A stretch of 64,000 nucleotides of DNA from Obrimoposthia wandeli (taxonomy: Eukaryota): contig CDROCS010001088.1 of the NCBI GenBank assembly GCA_977020255.1, positions 62,001 through 126,000 on the forward strand. Direction: 5' to 3'. This document shows positions 13,631-56,270 of this stretch, in pieces. Numbering within the stretch: position 1 is the stretch's first letter; each line of letters opens with the position of its first letter. Below the pieces are notes generated by a model. It saw nothing but the letters and a program-made list of their open reading frames with translations, made no database searches and was not told the origin of the DNA. A program made the translations under genes and the position numbers.

Positions 13631-14590
13631 AGTCAACTAGCAAAATGTGTTCTTTTTCGATTGGATAAACTGTTTTTTTAATAATTATCTTTGATTTCTT
13701 ATATAAATTTCGTTGCAATATGAGTAGAAAAAAACAGCATTCATTTTGTCTAAACCTTCACCAAACACTAAATTTATATTTCTGAATGCTTCCGCTGCCA
13801 TGTGACTTAATTTATATCCATATAAGAAGTAATCCGTTTTTTGGTTTCAATCCTTACCAAATTCCAATATAAAATTATAAAGTTGTTCTACAAACCATAT
13901 GATTTAATTTACTATATAACATATATGATATTTCATTATTTCATCATAATGTTAAGCAATATAGTTAATGACACGGAGTTTTCAGAGTTATACCCATTTC
14001 TTCCAACTGCATTGTATGCTGCAAATTACTTATGGAATTTATTTAGTGTATTAAGTCAGATAAATCATTCATTTTTAAATCCATTAAAGATAGATACTAA
14101 TTCAGGGAAATTGTCCATGAAGGGTATTCATGATAAAGATATAACTCTCCTCACCAAATATATGATCCCAATCTTCTCAAATTTCTAGCTAGAAGAACAA
14201 TCAGTTTATCACATCAGATGATTTAGTCCAAACTTAGAGTATGAATTCTGCTACAAGATGAAGACATGGCCTAAATTGCAATTTTATCAAGTTAAAGTTT
14301 GCACTAAAGGATATAAGAAGGATCCATTTGAGCGAGTGCTTACACTTGACAGAAAGAATATTGTCTCAATTTAATAAGTTTTCAATTTTTTTAATTAAAA
14401 AATCTCACAATATCTTTAAATAACTACAACGTAGTTGATTTTATTCATTCAAAATAGGATATAAATTATTTAACGTTTATTGAGACAATTACAATACCTA
14501 GTTTTCACGTACTAAAGTTTCATATAAATAAATACAAAGTAACATAATTTTTTATATTAAGATTTAAACTTTACAAATAATTTTAAAGTA

Positions 14591-15469
14591 CGTGGTACGT
14601 TCAATAAGTCCCTAGCCTACCAAAGAAAAAAGAAAGTAACCAAATATATTTTTATTTTACAACAACATGTAACAATATAGAGTATATTTTTCGACATATG
14701 ATCCATTTTTGTCAACACATTTTTTCCAGCAGATGATTAGCTCCCGAAAAGCCTTTTCAAAGAAACCAGGCTCACATTTATTGAAAAAATCACGAACATT
14801 GTTGATCAAATCATCTTTGCTGTCGAACTTAATACCTCTCAAATGCTTCTTAAGATACTGGAACTTGTAAAAGTCACTAGGTGCGAGGTCTAGGCTATAG
14901 GGTGGATGTTTCAGTAGAGAAAAGCCAATCTCCTGTGAGGTTTGCAGTGTGCACTGGCGCATTATCCAGCAATAGCCATAAAGGTGTGTTTCGTGCTTTG
15001 TGAAGGCTTCCCACACTGATATTAAGACGAATGGACAGGATTTTAAAATAGATTCTGCGTTCATCATTCACGATCTTAATTAATTTTTCCTTAACTTGAT
15101 CTGGAATCTCTTGAGGTCTTCCCGTTCTTTCATCATCAAACACAGAAGTGCGACCATTTTTAAAATACTTGACCCACGTTTTCATAGTAGCATAACACAG
15201 AGAATCACCCTTGTACGTATCTTGAAGCATTTTATTTATTTCAGTTGCGTTTAGTCCTTGCAAAACAAAAAACAACTTGATATCACTCCTGTATTCCACT
15301 TGATTTATCATAAATTTGAAAATGTGCCACTAAAAATATAAACAAACGTAACACATTAAAATAAAGTATATAGTTTTTACCTATATATAATTATGTAGTT
15401 AAATGAAAAATTAAGGATTGTATCTATCATTTTTCTATGGTAGGCTAGGGACTTATTGAATGTACCACG
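14591..15469 (-). mobile_element. Internally deleted mariner element in the Frizzled intron
   Basis: 32-bp TIRs (cgtggtacgttcaataagtccctagcctacca; 1 mismatch), TA on both flanks. Transposase pieces: N-terminal HTH (MINQVEYRS...ERTGRP), LDNAPVH, HPPYSLDLAPSDF...WKKCVDKNGSYVEK. Middle of the catalytic domain missing, frameshifted. Confidence 0.95.
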
Positions 15470-15886
15470 TAACTCTTCATTGTGCTTGATCCAAAACAGG
15501 ACTAGATCCTATTCAAAGAAACGGTTTTCGATAGCGAGTTTATTAAAATGGACATTTAATTGAGTTTATAAGTGAAGGAAATCATTGAACATATCTCAAA
15601 CATGACACATTATTGACATTTATTTTATCAATCTAGTAAAAAGCCTAACTTGGATTAAATCTACTCATACTTTCAAATTAAACAATATCCACATCTGAAT
15701 ATTTCCTGAATATTTAATTAAATACAGTAAATTATTTGTGAAATTTATCGTAAAAACTTGATTTTATTCGTTCGTAAAATTAGACCTCTAAGGTATTACA
15801 ATTTGTTATATTAATAACTCGAATAGTGCAATACCATCATGTCTATTGTTATTTTGTATATCGATTATCTAATCCAATCAAATATT

Positions 15887-16160: not shown

Positions 16161-16285
16161 ACAAACATTCTCATATATTTATTAAATACGACTATTATAC
16201 TTGATATTGATGAGGATTTAAGGGCTTTGAATGTTGTCATGACACAAAAACAGATTTCTGAGGCTTATTCCAAGCAGTCTCTTAC

Positions 16286-16606
16286 CTCAAAACCGGCGTC
16301 ATTCTGGTTATCGTCTCCAAACATGTTGGGCATGCGGGTAAAATTGTACTGGATGCCTTGACACATTGGAATGCGTATCTTCTGACAATTGGCTGCTCCC
16401 GATGCTCCTGGGTTGGAGGGTGCTGGCACCCCGTCTGGGTCAGCCACTGCTGATTGGTGCAGCTGCCGACCTCTGTTGTGGAGCCTGTCTCTTCTCTGCA
16501 GCAGTCCTAGTAGGGCCCGGGTTCTCCGCCGCATAGAGGGGACCAGAGCAGCGTTAGCGATAATAAGCAGCATGAGCAGACTCACTGTCAGTAGCCACGT
16601 GTTCAT
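16286..16606 (-). CDS. fzd: First coding exon of a Frizzled-family cysteine-rich-domain protein (Frizzled receptor most likely; sFRP-like not excluded)
   Basis: Translation MNTWLLTVSLLMLLIIANAALVP... (signal-peptide-like) ... CQKIRIPMCQGIQYNFTRMPNMFGDDNQNDAGFE matches the Fz CRD pattern C-x-x-I-x-I-P-M-C-x-x-I-x-Y-N-x-T-x-M-P-N...Q-x-D/E-A-G-x-E-V. Phase-0 donor GAG|GTAAG after 16286. Pyrimidine tract plus CAG acceptor (tttttttgctatgcag) ends at 16614, 7 nt before the ATG. GC-rich island. Confidence 0.9.
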
Positions 16607-17061
16607 GAAACTTCTGCATAGCAAAAAAATGTAAATTGTTTACTCAGATTTAACCCAGATTTGAATCTATATTATGCGTACGTACTAAATGGTTCACCTC
16701 AAATGTTAAACATGAAGATTACATTTGTTTATTCGAAACACACTAGACATATATTTTTTTATATGTTGGAATGTATTTTTATAGAGCCCATGTTAGAATG
16801 TTTGGAAACATTTTCCATATAAAGATCTTCTACAAATGGTGGGTTTTGAGAAATAATGATGGACAAACTTTCTGCATGTGGAGCTGCATGTAAATAGATG
16901 TATTTCAAATAAATTTAATCTTGAAAACCAAGTAAATGCTAAAGGTTTTGTACAACATCGATACCAGTTAACTTTCTTCAAATCCATTTAGAGCTTATTT
17001 TATATTTCTGTTGTATTTGCCTATTACTTTCCGTTTAATTAATTTAAAACATGATCAAGAA

Positions 17062-21800: not shown

Positions 21801-22680
21801 CTGCATTTGTTGCGTTAACAGTTTCAACACATGTTTCTGATCAAAACTGATTTTGTGATGAAGTATTACATATTATGTATCAATTAGTAAATTGTATAAT
21901 GAAAGCACTGATATTTTGTTATATTGAAGTCTATTCCCAGAATACTATATATATCCAATGGACAATTAATATTATTGTGCGAAATTTGTAAAGCAATCAA
22001 CGATTCTGAGACGTTAGATCTTTTGAATTATGTATTTCAAAATTAATAATAAGGTTAAAAATAAAACTTTCAATGTTAGAGTTTTATCTTATTTAATGTA
22101 TTTTTATAGTAGTGGGCCGTTATGGTTAACATTTTATTGAGGGTCAGTGGGCTGAAAAATGTAAAAAAATACTTGTATACATTTTTTTATTCTAATTTTT
22201 CAATTTAAAATTATTTTGTATATTATAAAGTTTGGGAATAAGACGTTCTGTAGAATTTTAAATGCTAAGTAATATATCTGAACTTTAAGTATATTCGATT
22301 TGTTTCTCAAAGATGTCACGATTATAAAACTCTGTTAATATCTAAAGAAACGAGACTATTTTCAAACAGTGAAAGTTAAAATTAATTTAATAATTTATAT
22401 AATACTTTTGTTAACATGAAGTCTTACTACGTTAATAATATACAAACTCTAGAAAGGAATGGCTACTCTTCTAAAGCAATATACAACCTTTTGGTTAATG
22501 CATGAAGTGAGGAGAATTTGGGTATTCTCCTTCTTTGACAAGATACTTCCTCTCCCACGCAAACATTTTTAATCACTTCATCTTTTGTAACATGGAAAGT
22601 CACTGGCACAACAGAGACTTATGAAAATGTGAGGGAATAATTCAATTTCTGTTGACTTTGTTAGAGTTTTCCTCTCACCT

Positions 22681-23922
22681 AGAATCCTCGTATGGAGCCC
22701 CCCAACGTGAGTTCTGTAGCGATAGGTCTAACATATGGATGTGTTCTACCTGTTTTAGTCTGAAGGTTTATTGTTGTGTGCATATATTGTGTGCAATGAA
22801 ATCGGTGATGTCCCTAAACATATTGTGATGTTGTGTGGGTCTGAACAATAAGCCAGTTAGGCCGAATATGATTTAGGTTGTAAAAATAGTTTGGCAAAGC
22901 CAAGACCAGAAATTGGGCAAAAGTAAGCCGGACTTAATCGGTGTCGACAGTAACCTTCCGAATAATAAGAGTTTAGGCTAGCGTCTCACGGATTAATTCG
23001 CAGCCTCAAAATGTAGTTTAGTTTTCAAATAGTGGTAGCTCAAACGATGGAATAATACTAGAGACAAGTATTATACGATTTGGATTGAATATATTTATTT
23101 CTACTATACTAAATTAAACACGTATAAAACTTTTACAAATTAATCCGTAAGTGGCGACACCTTACAACTCTTTAATGACCTTATGGTTGGTTATTACTTC
23201 GAAATATTACGGTATACACGTCAAAGATTTCTAAATATTATGTTGTTAAATTTTTGATAAAGATTCAAATTTATGATACTGACAATGTCTCACGGTTGTT
23301 TTATGGTTCCTTGAAAAATTGGTCTCGTTAAATGATAATAGTTAGTCCAGCAATACAGTAATTATTCATCTATAAGGGGTCCCACCTATAAGGGTGTCCG
23401 GTCACCGAAAATTTCACGCTTCACCTATAATAGTACCTTTCCAAGCTTTTAAATAATGCATCTATAAGTGATTCGGTGTCGGTCTCTCTCAAAAACATGT
23501 TTTAATGAATACCCTTACAGGTGAATAATTACTGTAGTTTACAATAAGGGGTTTCCTTAGTCTCAGCTAAAAATCGTAACGCTATATAAGTAATTGTGCG
23601 GTAATCTAATGTGTCACTGGGAATTTTCACAGGATTTCTCAACTATTCATTTTTTAAATTTTGATTATTTATTTAATTTTAAATTTATAACTTTTGCTGA
23701 GAATATTATTCCTTTACTATATATATCTCAATTTAATTATTTAATATACACTTTCCTTATTCTTATATACCTCAGGAGTTTTAAGAAAGTTTCGTCACCA
23801 GAACGGTAGAAATTTATATTGTGTCCGCTACTATGCTCAAGCATACTAACCTAATCTACGCTACAGTCGTAGGTACCTAATGTCTATCCTTGCAGCTCCC
23901 AAAATTAGGGTAATGTAAAACA
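22681..23922 (-). mobile_element. LTR (copy E) of the long-LTR family, last about 25 bp missing
   Basis: 22681-22780 is the reverse complement of the family 3' block (aaccttcaga...tatcgctacagaactcacgttggggggctccatacgaggat). The right boundary is tentative: minus-strand TGTTTTAC preceded by a purine run AAGAAAAGAAAA. Confidence 0.55.
23356..23534. mobile_element. pogo/Tigger-type MITE nested in LTR E
   Basis: TIRs cagtaattattcatctataaggg / cccttacaggtgaataattactg, TA on both flanks. Confidence 0.85.
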
Positions 23923-24051: not shown

Positions 24052-24690
24052 TCAAAAAGTGGGGAAACAGGAGGTGACTGTCAGGTCAATGGTTAATATT
24101 GTTAGGGCCCGGTCCTCCATGTATCGGGCCACCTGCTCCACTGGCATCGTTGGCGATTCCGGTGAGTTAGTGTACATAATATCCTGCTGCTGGAAGATGT
24201 TGAGCTGTGGGCCATGCAGATCTCACCTCTGATACAGCTGTTTTGGAACGTTGACCCATTGGCCGGCTACGGTAAAAAGTGTTCCACTGGTCAAAGGGCT
24301 CTGATACTTTGGGCACATTGGAGTGGTGTATGGGCGAGATCTGGCCCAGGTGTAGAAACACCCAGCATGAAATCGGTACTCACAAGTTTGGGGCACAACC
24401 GTCTGTCTTCGGAGTCACTTTAGGCCAGCGGTTCCCAACCTTTCTGGTGCGGTGACCCCTTCATAACATTGGCCAAGTTGCGGTGACCCCAAGGATAAAA
24501 TAATTTTATCAACACAACAATTTGTTATATTTTAACTACAAAAAATTTATTGGCATAATGTTTTTTTTTAAACAACTTTTTAAAAGGCCTTGCTGCCTTA
24601 GGCGACTCCAGGCAAATTGTCAGGCGACCCCAGTTGGGGTCGCGACCCACAGGTTGGGAACCGCTGCTTTAGGCAAATTGGGAATGATAT
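24052..24690 (-). pseudogene. Decayed RING-H2 finger gene (RING1), split by a hAT MITE
   Basis: With the MITE and one TSD removed, one frame reads ISFPICLK*LRRQTVVPQTCEYRFHAGCFYTWARSRPYTTPMCPKYQSPL...SCFPTF*, a degenerate C-P-I-C...C-x-H-x-F-H-x-x-C-x-x-x-W...C-P-x-C. TATAAAA lies about 35 nt upstream of the putative decayed start (ATA). Confidence 0.7.
24426..24666. mobile_element. hAT (Charlie-like) MITE
   Basis: TIRs cagcggttcccaacct / aggttgggaaccgctg; perfect 8-bp TSD ctttaggc (24418-24425, 24667-24674). Confidence 0.95.
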
Positions 24691-25027
24691 CCTGGATGGT
24701 AGTACTTGTTGGTTAGGGTTTTGTTTTATAGGCTTATATTATTATTAAGGTATTTGTGTTCAAAAGGTTGTAACTCTGTGTAGCGTATACTACTTACTTT
24801 AATTTTGGTTCTGCTCGGATGGTGACTTCACTGTTGATGGAATTAAAAAAAAATCTTTTTAAGTTTTTTAAATATAAAAATTTACAATTTGAAGTGTGCA
24901 TTATACATAAAGCGTTGATAATTTACATTTTTAGTTACAAGATTTAGTTTCTGGGTTGATATTTTATCACTGTCTGTGATACACAGGATCATTTCAAGAT
25001 TTCATGATCCTCAAAGGTTACCTTCAT

Positions 25028-25333
25028 TTATTGTCTGTTTTTGTGCTGATCCTCTCTTCGCTCGTCTATGCAAAAGGAACACCAGCAGCCGCAGATGTTC
25101 TTCGAGCAGTGGACAATTAGCACCTCTGCTCGGTTCCGGTCTCAGTTTCTGATGTGGTACAGCGAGAAGGTTTCTCGGCACATTGGGCAGGATGGGAAGT
25201 CGAGGGAGTTGGCCTTGTTGACAATTGGCATCCAGGCCTCGAGACAGCTGATGTGTAAAGTGTGGCTGCAGTTGTTGGGTTTTGCATGCTAGTTCCGGAT
25301 GACCTCATAGCAGATGGGACAGTCTTTAGGCAT
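25028..25333 (-). pseudogene. Decayed RING-H2 finger gene (RING2), 101 codons with 2 internal stops
   Basis: MPKDCPICYEVIRN*HAKPNNCSHTLHISCLEAWMPIVNKANSLDFPSCPMCRETFSLYHIRN*...HCSKNICGCWCSFCIDERREDQHKNRQ*. All 8 RING-H2 ligands and the conserved W are present; AATAAA overlaps the stop. Confidence 0.85.
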
Positions 25334-25459
25334 TTAAGTTATCGAACTAAAGTTGTGATCGATTTGAATATGAATAAAGTTTCAAGGAATTATATGTATT
25401 ATTTTGACTGCTCCCTCCCTATTCAAATGAATAAAGTTCATGAAGTTATGAAGTTTTAA

Positions 25460-26150
25460 ATTGTCGACTCTCAAAAATTGTTAGAATAGCGTAACATAAT
25501 CTACGGAAGAATATACGTAATTGCAAGAAGGCCTTTGGTATACGTAACAAGATGTTTCCAGAACAAGAACAAGATGTTTGCTGTTATGGATGATATCACA
25601 TTATGCGATGTTCCTGCTAAGTTTGACGCTACAAAGTATGCTGAGTTGCCTCCATCTGCCAAGAAGTGGAAGAAAGAAGCACAAAAGGCTTCAAATCCCA
25701 TGAAAGTGAGAAAAAAAATAATGCAGAAATGTCGCGAATTGAAAGCTGAAATTGTCTCAAAGGCCTCTAAAGTTGCAACTGCTGTGAAGCAGTCACAAGA
25801 GGATCAGAATACAATATCGTCACTGAAGAAGGAAACCAAGAAGGCATGGAAGTTGGTATATTCACCAACAGAGAAAGAAACTACGGTACGGGAAAAGATC
25901 AAGTTGGAGATAGAGAATCTCACCAAACTCGTGGAGCAGGGAGCGTCGCTTGGAAGCGGTTCGGATAAAATGGACAAGAACCTGAAGATCGCAAGGCGGA
26001 TCCGGTGGACAATCAGACAATAGGAGAATGTACCACAGCTGGAGCAGTTTGTCATGCGCCAAATATTATGGGTGGACAAGTCGCGGCTTGAGAGTGGGTG
26101 TCTTATGGAGCCTGAAGTCGAAGAGGTTGGGCTTTTGCTTCTATTTTTAT
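25460..26150 (+). pseudogene. Intronless Lys-rich, coiled-coil-like ORF of unknown function (open 25490-26023, TAG at each side)
   Basis: ORF-track 162-aa product; the frame continues past TAG 25487 upstream and TAG 26021 downstream with coding-like composition. No family recognised; ends approximate. Confidence 0.55.
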
Positions 26151-26257
26151 TGCCCACATCAACATTTTTCAAAGTTAATAGAGTTAAAGGTAAAGTTAAC
26201 ATTGTAAAGTTAAAATTTTCAATTTTTCAACATTTCAAGTCCGTTGTAAGTCCGTGT

Positions 26258-26389
26258 ATGTCTCGTGATGATGAAGATCGTCTATACAGTAAATGTATCC
26301 AAATAATAGAATTTAACTGGATACATAGAAAGCATCGGCAAGAAATTTTAGAGGAATTATTGTTTTTAGTAGATATTTATGAATTATGA
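26258..26389 (+). CDS. Small 43-aa ORF of unknown function
   Basis: MSRDDEDRLYSKCIQIIEFNWIHRKHRQEILEELLFLVDIYEL*; the TGA overlaps AATAAA (26389-26394), as in RING2. Confidence 0.35.
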   Translation: MSRDDEDRLYSKCIQIIEFNWIHRKHRQEILEELLFLVDIYEL

Positions 26390-26394
26390 ATAAA

Positions 26395-29300
26395 CAAATG
26401 CGCCAAAACAAGAAAAGATGTTACAACTGATGGAATTTCGTTTAACGGGAACCTTACAAATTAATTCAAAACCTAGGTTACAATAAGGCATTGAAATTGT
26501 TAGAGGAAAGATACGGAGGAAGGGAAAGGAATTATCGAAGTTTGATGGATGAAGTTGAAAAATTTAGGGTGGTAAGATAGAGAGAAGATCAAGACCTGAC
26601 GCATTTGTCCAATTGATAAATAAAATAATAATCAGAGTGAGAGCGGAGAACGACAAAGGCGATCTTGGAAATGGGTTTTTATTCAATAAGTTGCTGAGAA
26701 AATTGTCAATGCTAGGGGTTATGGATTGGACAAATGGATACAACAAAATAGAGAGGAAGAAAATGTATGACGTTAAAGATATGGGCACAGCAAGAAAGTG
26801 AAAACCTAAGGATAGCAAATGAAGTTAACGGAAGTGAAAGGTACATGTAAAAAGTAAGCATTAATCATGAAACCTATAGGAGATGAACCGGCGAGTTTGT
26901 AAACAGGGCGAGAACTTTCGTGGGAAATGCAAAAGCTAATAGCATAATTAGTTCTGGAAAATTTCAAAGGAAGGGAAGAGAGATAAAATGTCTGAGGAGT
27001 AATAAAGAGCACTACACGGATAAATGTGAAAAATTAAATAAACTATCAGTAGCAAAACGAAGACAGTGGGTCGACAATGAACGTTTGAGTCGAAATTGTC
27101 TTCGAAATAATCATGATGTAGCCCAGTGTAAGGTGAATAAATGGTGTAGAATGAATGACTGCACCGGCAAACACCACTGGATACTGCAAGCTAATGAAGA
27201 GCGAAATAATCAGACGCGTCCAAACTCCTTCTTTACAGAGGAAACAAAAGAAGAAAATACATTAGTGGCATTAAGAACAGTACCGTTTATAGTACGACAT
27301 AAAGGTCAAGAATTGGTAGTCAACAAATTGTTAGATGATGCCAGCACACGATCTTACATTAGTAAATATCTGGCAAGAACGTTAAGAGTGACAGGACAAA
27401 GACAAAATATTCATGTGGGAGTAAAAATTGGAGGAAACGTGGAAAATGTGGACTGTGCAGAAGTTAATGTAGAATTGTTGACAATGAATCGAAAAGTTAC
27501 GAAGTTAATTAACGCATTAGCAGAGCCAGAGATTACAGGGGAATTAAAGGTAATAAACTGATCAGATGAAGCAACAGTGGCGGCATCTCGAAGGTATAAG
27601 GTTTCCAGCAGTAAATGTGAAGAAAAAAAATAGAATTATTGATTGCCGCAGACAACATCGAACTTCAGAGTTATCTTAGAGAAGAGCTAGAAAGATCAGG
27701 CGCACCTATAGCAAGACTCACACCGTTGGGTTGGACTTATATAGGGCGGGTACGAGGATCGACTAAAGGTCGGCAGTATGCGAATTTGGCCCATACATAT
27801 TTGCGAACCCATATCGATACAGAGATTTTTTATATTAGGAAATTCTGGTAGGTGGAAGCCGTACCAAGGAAAGTTAAGTCAGAACGACGATAAAGTATTG
27901 TAGGAAACACGACGCGGAATAGTAGAGGTGGGAGGGAGGTATGAAGTAAGTTTACCGTGGAAAATGAGAGTGCTAATGTTAGATGGGATTGTGAAATGGC
28001 TAATCAGTGATAGAGGAGCTTGGAGAGACGATTAGACAAAGAGACACAGTTGAGATCGGAGTACACGGCAGTCGTCGAGAGCCATCTACAGAAAAGTTAC
28101 AACATAAAGGTACCGGAATATGAAGTAAAGTTGACTAAGTGGTTGTTGCCGCATTTTCCAATCGTCAAGCGGGGAAAAAACAACTAAAGTTCGAATAGTG
28201 TTCGATGCAGCTGCAGAAGTGCGAGACCCAAGTTTGAATGATTTAATTCATTGTAGGCCGAAGCTGCTAGGATATCTAGTAACGATCTTGTTAAGGTTCA
28301 GAAAAATGCTGTAGCATTAGTTTGTGATATATAGGAGATGTATCTCCAGGTAAAGGTGACAGAGAAAGATAAAGTGTGGTTGAGATTTCTATGGAAGGAG
28401 CACAGAAAAGTGGAAACGTATGAATTTAATCGGGTAGAGTTTGGAATAAGCGCGTCACCCTTCTTAGCACAGTTAGTGACTCAAGTAAATACGGAGAAGT
28501 TCGTAGGAATATTCAACAGGGCCATCGAGACGATATTAAAATTCATATATATGGACGATAGTTTGGATTCTGTGCCGTCCGTCGAATAGGCGATACAGTT
28601 ACAACAAGATCTGCTGCAGGTGTGGGTAGGTGCGGGAATGAGGGCCAAAAATGGTTAAGCAACAATGACAGTCAACGAACAAATCGCCACAGCGGACAAA
28701 GCGAAAGTATTACAAATCGCGGATTTCGAAACAATGCAAAGTATAAAGATCTTGGGAGTAGCGTGGAACGCACAAGCAGACGTCTTTGAAATGACGACGA
28801 GTTTAGAAACGTTAAGGACAATCACTAAGAGGATATTCCTAAGTCTTCTGTCAAAAGTATTTGACCCATTAAGTTTTGCGAGTCGAATAATAATAACAGT
28901 GAAGATTATTATGCAAGAGTTATGGCTGTCAGGTTTGGACTGGGATGAAAAAGTCGATGGAAGTATTAAAGAGAAGATAATTCATTGGGTGGAAGATGTA
29001 AAGTTGTTAAATAAGGTTAAAGTTCCCAGATGGATACGAGCTGGAATATCTAGTAAATTTTCGTTACACATTTTTGTAGACGCTTCTGAGCAAGCATATG
29101 GAGCAGTAGGTTACTTGAGAAATGAAGAAGCAGGCAGAGCGATAATAAGTTTCATCGCGTCAAAAACAAAATCGACGCACGTTAAAGTAAAAAGTATATT
29201 GCGTTTAGAATTATTAGCAGCATGAGTCGGTGTTAAATTAGCAAAAGTACTCACGATTGCGTTGGAGTTACAGTTGAAAGAGGTCAAGTTTTGGTCGGAC

Positions 29301-30360
29301 AGTCTGAACGTATTGTGGTGGATACGCCAGTCAGGGCGGTATTATAATGCATTCGTGGCTAATCGAGTAGGCATTATACAGGAGGAGACGAGTATAAGTC
29401 AGTGGAGGTACGTAACCACAAAATTAAATCCGGCGGACATATTGTCAAGAGGAGCTGGTGTTCAGCGATTGAGCCAAGACAAGTTATGGTGGGAAGGTAC
29501 CGATCTTTTATTGGAGCAAGAGATGGGGTGGCCAAAATAATCAACACTAGAAGGGATGTCAACAGAAGTGGAAAAGATGCAAAAAGTGATAGTTACACAT
29601 GTTACGCAGAGGATCGATGGGTTCAACATAAGTAAGTATTCGACACTAGCAAGGTTACAAAGATGCATGGCGTGAATAATACGTTTCATAACCAACGCAC
29701 GGTTAGATCGAGATAATAGATTATCGAAGGAACTGGAGATCACAGAGATTCAAACTGCAACAAAGCGTTTATTAAAAGCTGAGCAACAAAGATATTATCA
29801 TGAAGATTACAAAAGACTAGAACAACAAATGTCACTAGAGAATAGATATGGTCTAATTAAATTGAACCCATGGATCGATCCAGATGGAATAATACGGTCA
29901 AACACAAGAATTATCCATGCACAATCTTTGTATTATCAGGCCAAGTATCCTATAATCTTACCGTACAAAAGTTGGGTCACAAGATTGATCGTAGAGGCGA
30001 AACACAGAAAGTTGCATCATTATGCAGGCGTGCAGCATGTGTTGTGTGAGATAAATAAGCAATATTGGATTCCAAAAGCGAGAAGATTAATAAGAAGTGT
30101 GAAATTAAAATGTGTGACATGCCAAAAGAGTAAAGCGAGTGGAATGTCAGCTGTAATGGCTCCATTACCGCATTTCCGTTTTGAAGAATCACCCAGAGGA
30201 TTCGATTATGTATGAATTTATTACACAGGACCATTTTTAACGAAGCAAGGCCGTGGAAACGTCAGAATGAAACGGATCTTGTGTTTATTAACCTTGTATT
30301 GAAAGACGAGGAAGACTGAGAATGTTATTATCAGATAACGGGCAAATATGTTTTTTGAAG
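26395..30360 (+). mobile_element. BEL/Pao LTR retrotransposon internal region, decayed, truncated at both ends
   Basis: Gag core (KLIQNLGYNKALKLLEERYGG), triple Cys/His knuckles, protease LLDDAS, RT YMDD (28548), RNase H FVDASEQAYGA, integrase zinc finger H..H..C..C, then LSDNG. Order PR-RT-RH-IN; many stops and frameshifts; no LTRs seen. Confidence 0.95.
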
Positions 30361-32399
30361 CAGTAGCAATAGTTAAAAAACGCATGTGACGATACGAACA
30401 CCAGAATGTTCATATAATGGAGTCAATGGAGGTATTATGCACATCCGTTCTGGGCAATCTCACACACACATGATCATTACTGATTTACTGTGAAACGTCT
30501 TAATTATTTCAAGAGTGTTGTCCAGGTTTCTCAAATGTAAATTATATCCAGGTAGTGTCAACCCCCATTCGTTGCTTATTTTTTTATAATTTCACTACAC
30601 ACATGCACGAAATTTCATTCCACACACATGCACGGTTTTAAAGGACAGTGGTAGCCCCCGTGGGGTGGATTAGACCGGACACATCCACCTACTATCGTCC
30701 ATTGAAATAAGTCATATTTAATTTTGATATTGGCGTTTCGAACCTTTGCAATGAACAAGTTATTTTTTAACCATAAATAAAATCTAAACTAAATAGATCT
30801 GTTCAAAGGAACCAAAACTAAATATATCTTAATATCGAATGTACTTCTCTAGCGACGAGCTTTAATCACAGTGTTTTACTGTATATGAAAATAAATATAC
30901 TTTGTAAGTATGCTGTATACTATATATTGTTATATTCAACATCTTCTTGTTTTGTGTATTTACTAGAAAGATATAATGCATCAGTGACACCATTAACAAA
31001 AACAGACTGAAAAATGTTTTTCATAAAACATGCAAGCCGACATTTTGGGCGTTAGTAATATAGCAATTTTTACATTGATATGTTTCACATTCGGGTGTAA
31101 TTAGTTTATTTCTTTGTTCTAATTAATGTAATTATATTTTTTGTATTTTATTTTTTGTTTGCAACATTCAATATTTTCAGATTATAATCAGAAAAAATAT
31201 GCATATTATGTATAAAATTTATAAAGAATTAATTAATAATTTGTTCTGAGTTTAGTTTTCTAATTCATTTTTTGTTTGTAAATTATTTTAGGATTTTGCT
31301 ATTTTTTGTATTATGGTTTAACGAATAAAGACAAATTTTTACATTCATTATGAAAAAATTCTAATCAATTATGACAAAGAAGATAGTTTTTATCTGTGAA
31401 AAAAAAACCTTTTATGACAGTGGTAGTATGCAATGATTATAGATTTATGTACTTCTATGTGTATTTGGATCGAGGCTTATATTTTTAAAGAATTTTAGTC
31501 AAATCTACGTATAATCCTCCACGTAAGAAAAAGAATAAAAGCCGAGTGTACAAAAGGAGGAAATAAAATAAAGTGTTCATGCAATATATGAAGGGAAATA
31601 ATAAAAATCTTCGGATATTTAAAAATTATTCCCTTGATTTTTATCCTCTATGACAAATCTTGAGTTCCTCCTTAAACTTAAATGAAAGATAACACAAGAA
31701 ACAAATTTTCTTAAAAACAACCCAGAATTACCGGATACAGAGATTAAAAAGTTAGGAATTAGTTGATTAAACTACAATAAAAATTATAATTTCAAATCCC
31801 CCGATCTTTATTAATGTATTACTAAAATGCTCACGAATGTTCTTTATAAATATTCGATCTTCAACCACAAAAAGATGTTCCTACAAATGTCTCACAACAC
31901 ATAAATTATGTACAGGTATAGTCCACATCACCTTCTAAACAGAAGCATGAAAACAGTCCGAATCAAATGTTGCATTTCTAATACACGATTTTGAATATCT
32001 TGCAGTTTTATAATTTTCCTAAAGATCAAATTAAGGGCTAGATTTTCCTGAATTCTTTGACCATATTTACATATTCACATATTCATTACAAATATTTCTT
32101 CGTGTGAAAACATGTTCTGTGTTTCTAAATATCTTCATCATAAACTTATGGACACTTATTTTGTTGAAATAATTTGTTTAATCTAATCTTTTTACTGAAA
32201 TAATTGAATATAAGGAAAAATACGGTCGCTTTCATTAAATTTTCTTCTTTTTTCATTAACAATACTTTGAAATACTCTATAAATAATCCAAAATAAAGAT
32301 AGTTTTACTTTAGGAATGACTAAATAAAATCAATACAAATAATAAAAATATTTTCTATATCCTAATCGTTGAGACCTTGGTTTTATTAAGGAAGCATGA

Positions 32400-34529: not shown

Positions 34530-36307
34530 TGTTAAGATTGGGATTCTAATAATTATGAAAAAATTAATTATTTATATATCGAAATAAATCTTTGAAAACA
34601 AGGTTAAAAATAAAATCAAATTTTAAATAAGAATTTAAAATTAAAATAACAAAATTATTAAGAATTTAAGGACCTTGAAAGGTCGTGTGCGATGTGTTAT
34701 ATATAGGTAAGTTAGACTAAATTAAGGGCCCCAAAAAAGATTAGATCAGCCCAGAGTGTGATTAGCAAAGCCTATCCGAGAAGCAATCTGAGAAGCAATC
34801 CTAGAAACAAGCAGCCGGTAGACGAAATCAATTTCCAGAATCCATTAGTGTTGTCTGGAGAACATTAACAGCGAGAAGAAATCTGGGAAACAAGCAGCTG
34901 GTAAACTGCAGATCAGAAAATCAATTAGCAGCCAAGGTAAGAAAAGTAAATAAAGGAAAATTTAAGCTTTATTAATTGCAGCACAGTTGGAAACAGACAG
35001 TTGATCGTACCAGAGATACAGTTGAGAGCAAGGTAAATCCAATATAAAAGGAAAAATTAAGCTTTATTAATTGAAGTACAGTTGGAAACAGACAGTTGAT
35101 CGTACCAGAAGGATCTTCCGTGATTCGTGGAGCTAGGGAATCTCAATTGAGCCTAGTGTTCGAGGAAGCAGATCGGAGACGCAGAGGTCGAGCCGAGCCT
35201 GGAAATCTCTAGGGATACAATATCTACGAAGGACGGTGAGCGCAGAGTGTACTGTAAGTCGATATTCCGGAAAACCAAGGATCCGTATTGTGCTCCGGAA
35301 GGCCATGCCAAGCGAAAATACTTGTGAGAAAGTTGAAAGATTAATAAAGTCTCATTGATAAAGTCTCATTGATAAAATAAAAGAATATTGAAAGATTAAT
35401 AAAGTCTCATTGATTCATTGATAAAATAATAGAATTTGAAAGATTGATATATTAAAAGAAAATTGTTTGAAAAGTGTTTTTGTGTAAAAGAAAAACACAT
35501 TTGTTTTAAAAGCATTTTTGCATTTTGCATTGGAAGTTAAAAGAGTTTTGCAAATTAAAGTTTATAAAGAGTTTGCATTGTGAAGTAAAAGAGTTTTTGT
35601 ATTTTCCATAGTTGGAAACCAATTGAGTTGTCCATTTTTAAGAATTTGATTTTAAAAACTACGTTAAAATACAAATCTTATTTGACTTACACTGCCCATA
35701 TTTTTAGAGCAACCAGCTCTACTAAAATCAACAAACTTAACTTGCCCATATTTTAGAGTGTTTACTCTGCATAAAACCAATAAACTAATTGCCCATAATT
35801 TTAGAGCAACTAGTTCTACTAAAATCAACAAACTTAACTTGCCCATATTTTAGAGTGTTTACTCTGCATAAAACCAATAAACTAATTGCCCATATTTTTA
35901 GAGCAACCAGTTCTACTAAAATCAACTAAATATACATCGCCCATATTTTTAGAGTAAAGACTCTATCGAACTAAAAACCCTCAATTAAAATCGATACGCG
36001 AAACGTCCCCACTTGTGTAGAGACTTTGTGAAAAGTAATTAAGATTAGCTGTTGTCATTTTTAGAACGTATTTTTAGAACGTAACTAGTGTGTTAAAGAA
36101 TAAAGATTTCCTACAACTAAACAACGTTGTTACATTCACACCACACCTAGACATAACAAACCTTCAGATAAGAATTGAGACAGGTAAGCCCAATTTAAGA
36201 AGGCCACAAACAACTGCAAGTCCTACTTCTATAGAACTCACACTGGGGCCCCCCATCAGAGGATTTATATCTAAACTCCAAAGTAGTTTCACATAGAAAC
36301 CCCAACA
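34530..36307 (+). mobile_element. Solo LTR (copy A), 1778 bp, Ty3/Gypsy-like
   Basis: TGTTAAG...CCCAACA termini; perfect 4-bp TSD cttg (34526-34529, 36308-36311); internal tandem duplications. Confidence 0.9.
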
Positions 36308-37954: not shown

Positions 37955-40900
37955 TGTTAGGATTAGGTTTTGATAAAATGAAATAATTAGTTGAATTTAT
38001 ACTAAAATGAAAATCCTTAAAAACAAGGTTAAAATTAAATAAAATTAAAATTCAAAATTAAATTATTAAAATTAAAATAAGAATAAATGTTAGAAGACCA
38101 CGAAGGTCGTGTATAATGCGTTGTGTATATAAGTTAATTTAAAGGAAACAAAAGTGCAAAAAAATAATAAGCAAAAGAAATTAATTAAGAAATCAAATAA
38201 AGGAAAGAAGCGATTAATCAAGAAAAAGCCACTGTCAGCAAAAAAGTTAATTGCTGAAGAATAGACGTCAGCAGAAGAAAAAGAGGTAAGCACATTTTAA
38301 GTGCGGAGTCAATTATTTCTAGTCGCAGACCGGATCGATTGTTTTTAGTCGCCGACCAGGACAGGCAGTTAAGCAGAAGGAACTGATTGACAGCTCACGT
38401 CAATTCAGCAGACGGTTAGACTATATAAGTCTAGTTGGATTTAAATTGAAATATAGGGCAGAGAAATCAACAACACAATCGCTACCAAGTCAATTCTCTG
38501 ACTGAATCCGGTTTCCTCTCGATCCAGTCCGCAATCGCATCTGTGCAGTCGCCGAAACCTCGCGATCAAGTCCGCAGCAACCTCAAGTCCGCAATCACAT
38601 CTGAACAGTCGCAGCCGTCGCGATCCAGTCCGCGATCGACATCCAAGCAGTCTCTAACTCCTCTCTGGACGACATCTAAACAGTCGCAGCAATCCCGATC
38701 CAGTCCGCGGTTGAGATAGGTGAGAAGAAAGTTTAAAATACTTTGATTAAAAATTGTGGGAATATTTTGATTATAATTCTGTTTTGAGAAGAAAGTTTAA
38801 ATTACTTTGATTAAAATTTGTGGAAATATTTTGATTATAATTCTGTTTTGAGAAGAAAGTTTAAATTACTTTGATTAAAATTTGTGGAAATATTTTGATT
38901 ATAATTCTGTTTTGAGAAGAAAGTTTAAATTACTTTGATTAAAATTTGTGGAAATATTTTGATTATAATTCTGTTTTGAGAAGAAAGTTTAAATTACTTT
39001 GATTAAAATTTGTGGGAATATTTTGATTATAATTCTGTTTTGAGAAGAAAGTTTAAATTACTTTGATTAAAATTTGTGGAAATATTTTGATTATAATTCT
39101 GTTTTGAGAAGAAAGTTTAAATTACTTTGATTAAAATTTGTGGAAATATTTTGATTATAATTCTGTTTTGAGAAGAAAGTTTAAATTACTTTGATTAAAA
39201 TTTGTGGAAATATTTTGATTATAATTCTGTTTTGAGAAGAAAGTTTAAATTACTTTGATTAAAATTTGTGGAAATATTTTGATTATAATTCTGTTTTGAG
39301 AAGAAAGTTTAAATTACTTTGATTAAAATTTGTGGAAATATTTTGATTATAATTCTGTTTTGAGAAGAAAGTTTAAATTACTTTGATTAAAATTTGTGGA
39401 AATATTTTGATTATAATTCTGTTTTGAGAAGAAAGTTTAAATTACTTTGATTAAAATTTGTGGAAATATTTTGATTATAATTCTGTTTTGAGAAGAAAGT
39501 TTAAATTACTTTGATTAAAATTTGTGGAAATATTTTGATTATAATTCTGTTTTGAGAAGAAAGTTTAAATTACTTTGATTAAAATTTGTGGAAATATTTT
39601 GATTATAATTCTGTTTTGAGAAGAAAGTTTAAATTACTTTGATTAAAATTTGTGGAAATATTTTGATTATAATTCTGTTTTGAGAAGAAAGTTTAAATTA
39701 CTTTGATTAAAATTTGTGGAAATATTTTGATTATAATTCTGTTTTGAGAAGAAAGTTTAAATTACTTTGATTAAAATTTGTGGAAATATTTTGATTATAA
39801 TTCTGTTTTGAGAAGAAAGTTTAAATTACTTTGATTAAAATTTGTGGAAATATTTTGATTATAATTCTGTTTTGAGAAGAAAGTTTAAATTACTTTGATT
39901 AAAATTTGTGGAAATATTTTGATTATAATTCTGTTTTGAGAAGAAAGTTTAAATTACTTTGATTAAAATTTGTGGAAATATTTTGATTATAATTCTGTTT
40001 TGAGAAGAAAGTTTAAATTACTTTGATTAAAATTTGTGGAAATATTTTGATTATAATTCTGTTTTGAGAAGAAAGTTTAAATTACTTTGATTAAAATTTG
40101 TGGGAATATTTTGATTATAATTCTGTTTTAAGAAGAAAGTTTAAATTACTTTGATTAAAATTTGTGGGAATATTTTGATTATAATTCTGTTTTGAGAAGA
40201 AAGTTTAAATTACTTTGATTAAAATTTGTGGGAATATTTTGATTATAATTCTGTTTTGAGAAGAAAGTTTAAATTACTTTGATTAAAATTTGTGGAAATA
40301 TTTTGATTATAATTCTGTTTTGAGAAGAAAGTTTAAATTACTTTGATTAAAATTTGTGGGAATATTTTGATTATAATTCTGTTTTGAGAAGAAAGTTTAA
40401 ATTACTTTGATTAAAATTTGTGGAAATATTTTGATTATAATTCTGTTTTGAGAAGAAAGTTTAAATTACTTTGATTAAAATTTGTGGAAATATTTTGATT
40501 ATAATTCTGTTTTGAGAAGAAAGTTTAAATTACTTTGATTAAAATTTGTGGGAATATTTTGATTATAATTCTGTTTTGAGAAGAAAGTTTAAATTACTTT
40601 GATTAAAATTTGTGGAAATATTTTGATTATAATTCTGTTTTGAGAAGAAAGTTTAAATTACTTTGATTAAAATTTGTGGAAATATTTTGATTATAATTCT
40701 GTTTTGAGAAGAAAGTTTAAATTACTTTGATTAAAAATTGTGGGAATATTTTGATTATAATTCTGTTTTGAGAAGAAAGTTTAAATTACTTTGATTAAAA
40801 TTTGTGGGAATATTTTGATTATAATTCTGTTTTAAGAAGAAAGTTTAAATTACTTTGATTAAAATTTGTGGGAATATTTTGATTATAATTCTGTTTTGAG

Positions 40901-41507
40901 AAGAAAGTTTAAAATACTTTGATTATAATTGTCCTCCATTTGATTTTCAATTTGCCCAAATTGAAAGGAGTTTTGACCTCCATTGATTTTCAATTTATTA
41001 AAGTTTGTCCAATTTTAAGGAAGTTTTTACATCACCACCTTTATTGACATAAAATTAAAGGTTTAACCTCAAAGTTAAAAGCCGACAGTAGAGTTAATTT
41101 GATTTGAAAAATCTATAACGTGAGCTTATTCTCGAGTCAGAGGAACAACTCTAAAATCTCGATCAACCCGAAAGTAAAATCGATACGTGGTTCATCCCCA
41201 CTTGTGTAGAGACTTACAGAAGTCTTAGGAATTTTTACCATACTTTTTAGAAGATACGTACATAAACGTATTGTTGTGTTTTAGTTTAGTGTGTTACCAA
41301 TAAACGATTTCCTACATTAGAAAACGTTGTTTTAAACCCTTCAGATTAAGAGACGTCAAACAAACACCTTCAGATAAGCAATAGAGATAGGCAACCATAG
41401 CACTAAGTAGGCCACGACCAACTTTAAGACCTGCTTCTATTCGAACTCACGTTGGGGCCCTCTGCACACAAGAGGATCTATACAAGTCTCGTATAGAAAC
41501 CCCAACA
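37955..41507 (+). mobile_element. Solo LTR (copy B), 3553 bp, enlarged by an internal satellite
   Basis: TGTTAGG...CCCAACA termini; perfect TSD ctaa (37951-37954, 41508-41511); shares conserved blocks with A and C. Confidence 0.9.
38721..40930. repeat. 64-bp tandem array, 34 full units plus one partial
   Basis: Unit tgagaagaaagtttaaattactttgattaaaatttgtggaaatattttgattataattctgttt; first unit starts 38721, last (partial) at 40897 = 34 x 64 later, with no net indels. Confidence 0.98.
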
Positions 41508-49817: not shown

Positions 49818-51379
49818 TGTTGGGGTTTCTATATGAAACTGTTTTCTAATATAGATCCTCTGAATGGAGGGCCCCAACGTGAGTTCTATAGAAGCAGGAC
49901 TTGTATATGTTTGTGGCCTACTTAATGTTATGCTTACCTCTCTCTAATTTTATCTGAAGGTTTGTTATTTCTAAATTTGAAGGTCGATAACAACGCTATC
50001 TAGTTGTAAAAAATCGTTTATTACAAAACACACTAATTTAAACACGTTCTAATTACGTTCTAAAAATGACAATACTATTCCTAAGACTTTCACAAAGTCT
50101 CTACACAAGTGGGGATGATCCACGTATCGATTTTATTTTAGGGTTGGTTGGTCACTCGAGTCTTTACTCTAAAATATGGCAAGGTTAAGTAGTAGGTTTT
50201 TGGAGAGCTGATTGCTCTAAAATAGGGAGTGAATTTAGAGAGCTTGTTGGTCTAAAATATGGGTAAAATATGGGACAGTTAATTCAGAATGCGGGACAAT
50301 TATATGAAAATTTTGGGGCAAGTTAATACAAAATGTGGGACAATTATATGAAAAATGGGCAATTATATCTTCTACATTTCTGCTCACAGTATTAGCAGTA
50401 TCTTCACAAATTCTTGTTCAGTATAAATTCAACGAACGCTTTTAATTCTTAGCGACTTTTATTTTCACGCTTTTTACTTTTTACTCAATCTTTAATTCTC
50501 AATACTTTCACGCTTGGCTCTTACCTCCTCCGAATAACCTGCGCGTCCGGTCTCGATTGGCCTCCTCAGATGTCGGCCGAACGTTTGATGTGCTGTGGTC
50601 GCACTGTTCGGTTCTCGTTCTAGGTGACGATTCTGACAGTATCTCCTCGGCTGGATTGGCTGCTCTCCTCCTCGTTTTTAGTTGGTCTCTTGGTTGGCCT
50701 CCGGATTCGGTTTCAGACTCGATCTCCAATATTTCTTATGTCGGCAGAACGTTCGGCTCGGTTCTCGTTTTTTGTTGTGCTGTCTGGGACAATCGAGTAA
50801 GTTCGCTTTTCAATTATTTAGTTTTACCTTCTTATTCTTTTTCGTTTCTATCTCCAATTAGCTTCGGTGCTCGGATTTTATCGACGAGTCTTATATTCTA
50901 ATTTTCTGGCCCTCACTTCTGGATTTCTCAATTTATATAGTTAAATTTCTATGTGGTAATTTCTACTTTGTTTCTTCGCTCAATTTATGTGTGGCAATTT
51001 CCCCTCTGCTTTTCTTACACGAGCTCAAATCGAGGGCCGGTTTCCTGTAACGCGATTAATTTATAAGTAATTAGCTAAGTGCTTCTTACCAAATCCTGGA
51101 CGACTGGCTGAATTCCCAGCGGTTCTTCTCGATCTACAGCTCCAATACCTGGAAAAATGTATCAATTTGCACTTAATATAAGTGCTCTTACTTCTAGACA
51201 GAGCAGACAGAGGCAGCTGTGATTGTTGCGATATTCTTCTTTCCTTCTTAATTTTTTCTTTAATTGAGCTTTCTTCTTCTAATCAATTCTTATTTTAAAT
51301 ATAACCTTGCTTTCAAGGATTTTTATTTTAGTATAAAATCAATTAATTATTTAAAATTACTCAAAACCTAATCCTAACA
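49818..51379 (-). mobile_element. Solo LTR (copy C), 1562 bp
   Basis: Plus strand reads tgttggggtttctat...cctaatcctaaca, the reverse complement of the A/B termini; perfect TSD ctgg (49814-49817, 51380-51383). Confidence 0.9.
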
Positions 51380-53640: not shown

Positions 53641-54736
53641 GACATAAAAGATTAGTAAGAATAAAAGCTTTGCTTATGGTCATTTTATGATTCATGATCA
53701 CATGAATAAATGATTTTTATTACTTAATTATTCTTTCAAGATTAAAGGTTTATTATAAACAAAAGTAATATAAATATAATCTTTGCCAAAGGTGCTGCCC
53801 GCTCTTCGGATGGAGGGCTCCCGTCTTATGAGGCTCAGCAAGGGAGACTTTGGTCACTTAAAATCTACTTAATCTACTTTTGTTTTAAATGGTAAGATAT
53901 ATAGCGCCATATTTGAAAATGGTCTTGAAATCACGCATACAATACCAAAATGGTTTGGCAGTAAAGGGTCATCGAGGGGGATCTATTGCTTTGAGTTAGT
54001 ATGTGCGATTTTCAGACCAAATGTAGGTCAAGTCTCGAAATCCTGCATACAACACCAGACATGACTTGGTGTTGTATGCATGATTTTGATTCTTGATGAG
54101 TCAATTTAAGCCATTTTTAGACATTTTAACGACATTCTGTATAAAAATGACTTTAAATAGACATTTTAAACACTATATATTACTATAGTATCCATTAATC
54201 CGTATTTAAATATTCCAAAATTTTCCTAAGCACTTATCCAAAATCATCTCTAAATAAAAGACTGAAATCTTCTTCAATATTAAAATAATTTCCTTCAAAC
54301 ACATAATCAGGTATGTAAAATTCAAAAAATTATTGACCTGATCAAAATCAGATGTCAAAATTTCAATTAAATATTCATTTTCAACTTGATATTTCCACAG
54401 GAATCGCAACGCTTATAATTAGATGCTTTTTAATATTTTGCAAGGTTTCCCTTTAGAAAGGCTCTTCGGATAATAAAAATTTCATACATAACTCAGAAGA
54501 GGATCAATTCTAATTTTAAATAACTGATTATATAACACGTTTTTATAAAATATATTTAAACAAGATACAAATATTATGAAACGAAATAAAAAAATTAAAA
54601 CTGATTACAATTTATTACTTGAAAACATGCAGAAATATACAAATGAAAGAAAAATGGCAAAAATAAATTAACATAGAAGAAAATAAATTGAAATTGTTAA
54701 AAAAGTCCAAATCTCGCTTAAAACATAGATAAATTC

Positions 54737-56270
54737 TTGCTTCGAAAAAAGTCCAAAAAATTTCTTGGATATCAAATCGAAGAGAATTCAATGCACCTCG
54801 ATCCAGAAGGGTTAAAACCAATTACTGATTACCCATTACCAACCAATGCAAAGGAATTGCAAAGACTACGTGGACTCCTGAGCTATTACGCCAAATGGAT
54901 ACCATCATTTTCAGACAAAATCCAACCTCTTCTGAAAGCAACATTTCCTCTGCACCCGTCAGCAAAAACAGCACTCTTTCAATTTAAAAAGGAAATCTAA
55001 TCATCCACACTATCTCCAATCAAACTCAATATGCCGGGGAGTCATGCTGCAAGAAGATAAACATATTACATTCTTCTCAAGAACCCTGAACTCGAACGAA
55101 AAAAGATTATATTCAATTGACAAAGAAGCCATGGCGATCGTCGAAAGTGAGCGAAAATGGAGATCAATATTGATCACAAACCACTTTTCAATCAAAAACT
55201 GACCAAAAAGTGCTCTCGTTTATCTTCAATCAAAAGAGAAATGGAAAAAACTAAAAATGACAAAATTCTTCGATGGAGAATTGAGTTGTCCTTATATTCC
55301 TACGACGTAACACACATCCCAGGCGAACTCAATCTAGCTGCAGACGCAATGTACAGATGCAACGCTATCAAATCCAAAAGGGTTCTTGAAATCCATCAAG
55401 CGTTGGGCCACCCAGAAATTACGAGGCTCTGGCATTTCATCAGAAGTATAAGAACCTCCCATTCTCTATAAAGGAAGTCAGAAACGTTTGTTAAAATTTC
55501 CAAACATGCGCAATACTCAAACCACAATACTACCTACCCGAGATGTCACAGCTAATAAAATCGACGCGACCCTTTGAAAGATTGAGTATAGACTTCAAAG
55601 GACCGCTACCGCAATCCGGCCCTTACCGATACCTCTTAGTGATGATAGATGCATATTCTAGATTCCCGTTTGCCTACCCCTGCAAAAACATGGAAGCACA
55701 CACAGTAAAAACGTATCTCTTCAATCTCTTCTCCACATTCGGGTGGCCTTTTTCAATTCACACTGATTGAGGTACCCAATTTATGAGTCAAGAAGTCAAG
55801 GAATTCTTAACGAAGCACAACGTCGCCCAAACCCCAACAACACCATATCATCCAACAGGAAATGGTCAAGTAGATCGACTAAATGGGACACTCTGGAAAA
55901 CTATATTTTTAACTCTACACAGCAGAAAACAAACCCCATCTTCATGGAAAGAGGTTTTGCAAGAAGCGCTACATTCTATTCGATCGTTACTGTGCACCTC
56001 CACAAATTGCACTCCACACGAAAGACTTCTTAATCACGAAAGACATTGTCTGCATTCGGAAGAAGCCTGCCCACATGGCTAAACAAACCAGGAACCGTAC
56101 TTATAAGAAGACACGTAAAAGACAATAAATATGAGCCCTAGGTACAAAATGTCGATCTTATCGAGACTAATCAACAGTATGCCCAAATAAAAAACCAAAA
56201 CGGAAATGTAGACACGGTGTCAACTCAAGATCTTGCTACTCTTTTAAAATCCCTCGTTGCACAATAGAAA
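54737..56270 (+). mobile_element. Ty3/Gypsy pol fragment (RT C-terminus, RNase H, integrase), 5'-truncated and decayed
   Basis: FLGYQI...LQRLRGLLSYYAKWIP; KNDKILRWRIELS...NLAADAM; RPFERLSIDFKGPLP...IDAYSRFPFAYP...IHTD*GTQF...TTPYHPTGNGQVDRLNGT. Followed by agaaaag|TGTTAG at 56273, a possible PPT and LTR start. Confidence 0.92.

Follow-up and report, generated by a model that had tools for sequence, protein, structure and literature searches.

Do the four small open reading frames (ORFs) packed into 2.3 kb of the Obrimoposthia wandeli genome (1.35 Gb, 30% GC) come from one virus-like source? They lie in a window of 64,000 nt of contig C1088 (CDROCS010001088.1, positions 62,001 to 126,000), which is the whole stretch of DNA analysed here. 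The original prediction had taken them as a single compact cassette, the pseudogenised accessory module of an uncharacterised virus or giant mobile element, with two RING-H2 genes on the minus strand (RING1 and RING2) and two novel ORFs on the plus strand (one Lys-rich and one of 43 aa). The frames themselves are real. However, they are parts of two unrelated elements: the RING genes belong to the 3' end of an older copy of a giant env-bearing Gypsy long terminal repeat (LTR) retrotransposon, and the plus-strand frames to a BEL/Pao element.

Two unrelated elements and the carrier of the RING genes

The genome search with positions 24900-26400, with scoring of the top 40 of 2,049 candidates, gave 36 non-self matches restricted to the RING2 side, all ending at or before the RING2 ATG, four restricted to the plus-strand side and none covering both, so the two halves must be assigned to separate elements and the idea of one module of four frames had to be abandoned. 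The full 149-aa Lys-rich ORF was unique to the window locus (0/40 other matches).

RING2 kept all eight RING-H2 ligands, as predicted (Pfam zf-RING_2 E 1.4e-7), though with two in-frame stops (codons 15 and 64); it was 77-84% identical in DNA to 36 other places found by the genome search and 55% identical in amino acids to the young copies. The decayed RING1 was recognized by the piece 24226-24414 (Pfam zf-RING_2 E 0.004), by tblastn against uninterrupted RING1 relatives (E 1e-12) and by 73% DNA identity to the locus L012. It is interrupted by a 241-bp hAT-type miniature inverted-repeat transposable element (MITE) with terminal inverted repeats and an 8-bp target-site duplication (TSD), CTTTAGGC, and the site was empty in two relatives, L012 and L018. 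Both the MITE and the RING identity were thereby confirmed. In addition, the homologous start lacks an ATG, the first and the last ligand positions are altered, and one stop and one frameshift are present. The window holds the 3' end of the older Gypsy copy, consisting of a piece of the phosphatase frame, RING2, RING1 and LTR remains, and lacks a third cassette gene (RING0) and ~2 kb of Gypsy, in place of which stands the BEL remnant.

The carrier of these genes is an env-bearing Gypsy LTR retrotransposon and not a DNA virus. Its copy on contig C370 spans ~22 kb between 1.9-kb LTRs (93.6% identical over 1,971 columns) with TG...CA ends, a 4-bp TSD (ATAT) and a primer-binding site (PBS) matching host tRNA-Met(CAT) genes. 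The Pfam order was CCHC gag, fusion glycoprotein, protease, BIR, RING, protease-reverse transcriptase (RT)-RNase H-integrase, two DSPc domains, RING0, RING2, RING1 and the 3' LTR. The env, located between the CCHC and RT, is a Monjiviricetes-type fusion glycoprotein (PF24664, E 1.3e-70); the BIR (E 2.6e-14) and the adjoining C3HC4 RING (E 1.6e-9) both precede pol, and the two dual-specificity phosphatase (DSP) domains follow the integrase (E 2e-41). In the first DSP domain the HCxxGxxRS motif is intact, and the best PDB matches of this domain were DUSP10/4/16/1. The single NCBIfam match on the phosphatase region was below the cutoff. The LTR pair, TSD, tRNA PBS, order of the pol domains and Gypsy-type RT (by Pfam, homologue search and tree) place the element in the Ty3/Gypsy group (Metaviridae), and in the RT-RNase H tree it grouped (97/91) with nine metagenomic elements, two of which have the same env before pol. 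Five young copies had the Gypsy genes and direct LTRs in common, and the older loci on contigs C1002, C629 and C3303 had remains of gag, env, BIR, pol and DSP upstream of the RINGs. Between the two copies with listed ORFs the positions of the frame breaks differ, and the env frames are broken in the copies read; the span suggests a polyprotein of ~5,300 aa.

Several further observations concern the carrier and its lineage. The 1,754-aa post-integrase frame (L071:1157-6418, minus strand) has one intact and one degenerate DSP domain followed by several hydrophobic, predicted membrane stretches, and a second aspartyl-protease-like domain lies upstream of the BIR. Tandem tRNA-Met(CAT) arrays with a 284-bp period occur in the host genome (G000:C2252:1-11900 and C2837:586000-598400). 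Among 80 metagenome loci related to pol, most of them short, the RING-H2 motif was absent by regular-expression search. One metagenome contig (L085) with a related Gypsy pol has a second protease and ankyrin repeats after the integrase; its 7.4 kb behind pol contain ankyrin and then three stand-alone ORFs, one of them a DEDD exonuclease, i.e., the same lineage with another 3' cargo.

Because fragments of TBP-like, capsid, protease and pPolB genes occur close to older copies, a Maverick/Polinton carrier was also considered; it was ruled out by the LTR/Gypsy content. The Maverick pieces lie outside the five young Gypsy copies and vary, with no constant linkage to viral core genes. Maverick-type fragments (capsid, protease, ATPase, polymerase) and a TBP-like ORF are common near L012, L013, L023, L024, L026, L029 and L083, and the genome seems to contain a TBP-carrying Maverick family, the TBP being named by eye.

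RING cassette: conservation, expression and possible role

The cassette RING0-RING2-RING1 consists of three paralogous RING-H2 genes in front of the 3' LTR, and all three were found uninterrupted and in tandem at a locus near one of the genome matches. With the middle RING as a genome query, all 150 scored matches (the best 150 of 22,063 candidates) were 97-100% identical and free of stops, and a 20-mer from the RING2 end had 1,410 exact genome matches, some of them tandem (control 0); the young cassette subfamily thus comprises about 1,400 copies. The gene order was the same in 14/14 further young loci, while among 20 older window-like loci RING0 was present in 17 and RING1 in nine. The search for intact copies and their neighbours proposed in the original prediction therefore found them in a conserved order inside a larger element with retroelement core genes, and for the RING half it was right to see decayed accessory genes that had belonged to a large, virus-like mobile element.

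The cassette RINGs are under purifying selection. In the printed pairs with dS > 0.12 involving three chosen copies, the young set having been picked by RING2 identity, dN/dS was 0.15-0.20 for RING2 (15 copies compared with L040, which had not been picked by RING2), 0.18-0.35 for RING1 and 0.31-0.55 for RING0 (natural copies). Selection among the copies, their number (>1,000) and the fixed site inside an LTR element argue against the RING frames being processed pseudogenes of host RING-H2 genes, for which no support was found, the genome search for a host parent being saturated by element copies; nor did a search of 5.8 billion proteins, limited to 55-177 aa, return a RING2 homologue. Such an origin is therefore extremely improbable, as the original prediction had also held, although a distant host ancestor of the RINGs may have existed.

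The three genes likely encode E3 ubiquitin ligases. The eight ligands are kept in all three RINGs of the alignment (C52 is altered in one of 12 rows), as are conserved Ile, Trp, Pro and Arg residues, which we take to be the positions marking E2-binding RINGs, and a second C-x6-C-x-C-x2-C cluster is invariant in RING0, RING2 and RING1. The structure model (pLDDT 79.6) had viral RING E3s of the PE38, IE2 and ICP0 types as its best fold matches in the viral library (best E 1e-4) and weak fold matches in PDB, and the language-model neighbours of RING2 in the Atlas were small viral RING proteins. These neighbours, together with the Maverick-like fragments near some older copies, would favor an accessory module of a large DNA virus or Maverick-type element comprising all four frames. 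This is very improbable given the carrier with LTRs and RT, the lack of any match joining RING2 to the plus-strand frames (0/40) and the restriction of the Lys-rich ORF to the window; furthermore, the second Cys cluster was found in 0/68 viral loci and a tree, whose branches are long, separated the element RINGs from 22 viral ones (97/91). The ancestral RING gene may nevertheless have come from a virus long ago.

In the copies L040 and L170-L181, at least four deep classes of RING1 (synonymous divergence, pS, 0.5-0.67) were joined to near-identical RING2 (pS 0-0.16, in copies which were picked for RING2 identity), pointing to a putative swapping of modules.

The RING2-RING1 spacer is bounded by GT-AG, with the donor 6 nt past the RING2 stop and the acceptor 1 nt before the RING1 start, and is precisely missing in four genomic copies, and because of these two features it is likely an intron. 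The GTAAC donor 6 nt after the RING2 stop was present in the window and in 9/10 other copies. The exact loss was seen in four of five junction matches, the fifth (L193) being excluded as a small deletion; the four spacer-less copies represented three different sequences, which agree to 92-94% with one another and to 96-97% with the unspliced copies. An AG was located 0-2 nt before the starts of the three genes in 13/13, 14/14 and 9/10 young copies and in 10/11, 10/15 and 4/4 readable older copies. Judging by these signals, the RINGs are likely expressed from a spliced subgenomic RNA, and RING1 would possibly be translated by reinitiation after RING2. The signals listed in the original prediction are present in the letters but are not conserved: AATAAA at the RING2 stop was absent from 9/9 other copies with the stop region printed, and of 8,992 stop-like triplets in the window 455 (5.1%) are overlapped by this hexamer; the TATAAA 35 nt upstream of RING1, which had been read as a promoter signal, lies inside the intron-like spacer, TATAWA occurring in 4.5% of 21-nt windows.

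What could three ligases do for a retroelement? We regard it as rather probable that they act on host proteins, keeping cells with an active element alive and permissive; the element-encoded inhibitor of apoptosis (IAP; the BIR-RING) and the domains resembling phosphatases of mitogen-activated protein kinases (MAPK) would join the RINGs in sustaining stressed host cells during replication. The cargo forms a coherent set, with an IAP, three ligases and a phosphatase whose nearest matches are MAPK phosphatases, from which a ligase activity and a role in cell survival or counter-defence are inferred. A bolder view, tentative and rather doubtful, is that the element represents an invertebrate retrovirus-like agent with a host-control kit of the DNA-virus style (IAP, MAPK phosphatase and three stand-alone RING E3s from spliced RNA), in which RING1 would be a swappable, multi-allelic arms-race effector against host defence, and the RINGs the first retroelement-encoded family of free ubiquitin ligases.

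Budding of retroviruses makes use of ubiquitin, and the env and the predicted membrane stretches of the long frame, of which there are several, would agree with ligases serving the particle cycle, with Gag or Env being ubiquitinated for turnover or for budding of the ESCRT type. We consider this unlikely: three divergent paralogues and the deep RING1 classes on near-identical RING2 fit a host-facing conflict better, and the BIR and DSP carried alongside belong to host signalling. The BIR-RING of planarian Burro1, reported to shield stem cells from apoptosis (Lee 2026, as cited in PMC13465017), provides a precedent for a cassette kept for host benefit (stem-cell survival), either as mutualism or as incipient domestication. 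That is quite unlikely here, since selection measured between dispersed copies reflects replication of the element, and since older copies decay; no fixed domesticated copy was seen, and none was specifically looked for.

Several points weigh against the action on host proteins and the spliced expression preferred here. Purifying selection means that the RING proteins mattered to the element, leaving the manner unspecified. The spacer-less copies are consistent with up to three loss events, possibly fewer, and the junction has a 2-nt AG microhomology, which leaves a deletion by RT as an alternative. A search for copies spliced at the RING0 acceptor (0/25 loci examined of 36 matches) or at the RING2 acceptor (0/15) found none, so that splicing from a leader to the RINGs stays putative. 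Finally, the frames were broken in both full-length copies examined, the assembly seems indel-prone and present activity is unproven.

Retroviruses hijack host ligases through adaptor proteins. An LTR element that itself encodes three ligases, maintained by selection in ~1,400 copies, would give a handle on transposon counter-defence or stem-cell survival; the window copy itself is dead debris and its worth lies in the element family which it indicates.

The BEL/Pao element and other features of the window

The plus-strand frames, predicted as novel and non-host, turned out to be neither. The Lys-rich frame is free of stops over 25490-26023 and its first ATG at 25574 gives 149 aa; it starts 240 bp from RING2 (ATG to ATG), not ~125 bp. 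Its core, 25692-25965, is 89% identical (283 columns) to one exon of host CFAP58 (L028; PDB CFAP58 E 1e-20, Pfam CFAP58_CC E 6e-121), and 25963-25988 matches the next exon; at the one junction examined, intron plus exon sequence is skipped at a 3-nt GGA overlap. The N-terminal part is 81% identical over 153 columns to host eEF1-gamma (L079; Pfam EF1G E 5e-45), which is itself about 50% identical to annelid, mollusc and schistosome proteins and had no closer named match; by this measure the host is likely a spiralian and plausibly a triclad. The Lys-rich ORF is a one-off mosaic of host gene fragments in the leader of a truncated BEL/Pao element, neither plus-strand frame is a viral gene, and the capture was likely due to template switching by RT. 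The 43-aa frame (26258-26389) does follow, in the same frame with one stop in between, but it is not a conserved gene: it was broken in all three homologous loci, and its stop and AATAAA fall on the junction of a 1.2-1.3 kb deletion. For the source of the leader, 25989-26388, six frames of the L026 homologue gave no Pfam match. A decayed BEL/Pao gag-pol, which the original prediction left unmentioned, follows directly (Pao A17 PF05380 E 1.9e-33, RVT_1 and Integrase_H2C2); Pao A17/RNase H, RT, integrase and an LTR followed by a PBS are all present, while both outer ends, and with them an LTR pair and TSD, are lost. The divergent spacing between RING2 and the Lys-rich ORF, pointed out in the original prediction, is not a divergent promoter but the broken end of a BEL LTR.

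RING1 and RING2 are what is left of the 3' accessory genes in an older copy of the ~22-kb Gypsy. As reconstructed, a BEL/Pao element with eEF1-gamma and CFAP58 pieces in its leader would have inserted into the cassette region, the breaks at 25335 and 30381 would have deleted RING0, ~2 kb of Gypsy and both BEL outer ends, and the MITE would have split RING1 later.

Sister BEL copies (L029, L026 and L077-L082) differ in the host fragments that directly follow the PBS. These come from eEF1-gamma, CFAP58, HSP70 (Pfam 6e-14) and, as judged by eye, HSP60; the HSP60-like piece had 44 non-self genome matches.

Table 1. Features of the two elements and later insertions in the window.
Feature	Position	Strand	Evidence
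Decayed 3' LTR of the giant Gypsy (older subfamily)	22660..23855, right end approximate	-	68-85% to 9 older RING loci at the corresponding position; weak match to both young-LTR ends
185-bp inverted-end insertion in this LTR	23354-23538		
RING1 pseudogene, third cassette gene	24052..24690	-	Pfam, tblastn, DNA match to L012
hAT-type MITE	24426..24666	.	TSD copies 24418-24425, 24667-24674
GT-AG spacer RING2/RING1, likely intron	24692..25021	-	Donor conserved; precisely absent in 4 genomic copies
RING2 pseudogene: RING-H2 and second C-x6-C-x-C-x2-C cluster	25028..25333	-	Two in-frame stops
Rearrangement junction	25335/6		Left edge of BEL LTR piece
BEL/Pao 5' LTR, 3' end, cut left	25336..25473	+	94-96% to five other LTR ends extending further left; homologous to pre-PBS DNA in L077/L078
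Degraded BEL/Pao PBS	25479..25492	+	Position as TGGTAGCAGAGCG in L081; near-matches in L077, L078, L082
Captured host eEF1-gamma fragment	25522..25665	+	81% to L079
Captured host CFAP58 fragments	25692..25988	+	89% to L028 exon plus 26 nt of next
BEL-family leader with 43-aa frame	25989..26388	+	77-81% to BEL copies L026, L027, L029; ends at deletion junction
BEL/Pao gag-pol, decayed and without its 3' end (RT, Pao RNase H/A17, integrase zinc finger)	26389..30380	+	Pfam; 83% over 3.6 kb to L027
Fragment of long post-integrase (phosphatase-bearing) Gypsy frame, residues 1125-1186	30382..30561	-	tblastn 68%, E 1e-17; 72-76% DNA to L016, L018

Elsewhere in the window this Gypsy family has left three solo LTRs (34530-36307, 37955-41507 and 49818-51379), all of them with TG...CA ends and flanked by TSDs of 4 bp (CTTG, CTAA and CTGG, respectively); within the second one a tandem region has expanded to 34.5 copies of a 64-bp unit (38721-40930), and an older LTR ends near 34345. 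The window also includes the first exon of a Frizzled-domain gene (16265-16639, minus strand; Pfam Fz E 7e-6) with nested elements upstream, a decayed mariner-like element with inverted ends (14589-15471) and a separate Gypsy pol fragment (54722-56082).

Comparison with known systems

Large DNA viruses encode small RING E3s (IE2, PE38 and CG30 of baculoviruses, ICP0 of herpesviruses and the RINGs of iridoviruses) which have an N-terminal RING fold as do the element RINGs; however, no orthologue was found among them, the identity is 15-37% in the RING core only and the carrier here is a retroelement. Baculoviruses combine an IAP, a phosphatase and RING ligases.

The BEL leaders resemble LTR-mediated retroposition of host mRNA by template switching, described in PMC5131818 for partial genes of several parents inside LTR elements, including a Pao example; relative to it they offer nothing new in kind, the parents here being eEF1-gamma and CFAP58 and, in sister copies, HSP60 and HSP70. 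The LTR retrotransposons of bdelloids, as outlined in the relevant passages of PMC5408684, likewise have stand-alone ORF3s behind pol, typically expressed from spliced messages, but their cargo consists of GDSL lipase, DEDDy exonuclease, env or transmembrane proteins, and RING occurs zero times in those passages.

The GAG-ENV-POL errantiviruses of Platyhelminthes, Nematoda and Bryozoa, with an env of the herpes simplex virus gB type (PMC13524379, main text), have the same gene order and env family as the element, in which a chuvirus/gB-type env likewise stands between gag and pol. Short env motifs, identified by eye, are common with Smed_errantivirus_1 in supplement file 3 of that paper, whose main text contains no occurrence of RING, phosphatase, ubiquitin, accessory or BIR.

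Planarian Burro/GYPSM1, in the descriptive passages of PMC6431247, is similar in its CCHC-knuckle Gag, the mononegavirus-like fusion glycoprotein between gag and pol, the BIR-RING before pol, the very long coding region and the high copy number, and, by eye only, in a ubiquitin-like-looking stretch. Burro has a single polyprotein of about 4,900-5,100 aa, and the span of the broken frames here suggests ~5,300 aa. On the other hand, Burro exceeds 30 kb against ~22 kb here, and it carries MATH, BCL2, ankyrin and dUTPase, which had no Pfam match at E 0.001 in 12 ORFs of our element. The element operates in the manner of Burro but, in view of the length and of these four features, was not filed as Burro. 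The same passages are without mention of two post-integrase DSP domains or three stand-alone RING-H2 genes, both present here, and no stand-alone RING or phosphatase cargo in such retroelements was found in the literature covered, although the figures and supplements of the main Burro papers may already show 3' ORFs. The story of Burro, in which an IAP cargo aids regeneration, would be extended to ubiquitin and MAPK signalling.

Overall, the architecture appears closest to that of planarian Burro (PMC6431247) and of the flatworm GAG-ENV-POL errantiviruses (PMC13524379), as far as these sources describe them, and relative to its known kin the element would be a variant, distinguished by three stand-alone RING-H2 genes and two DSP domains in a giant env-bearing Gypsy.

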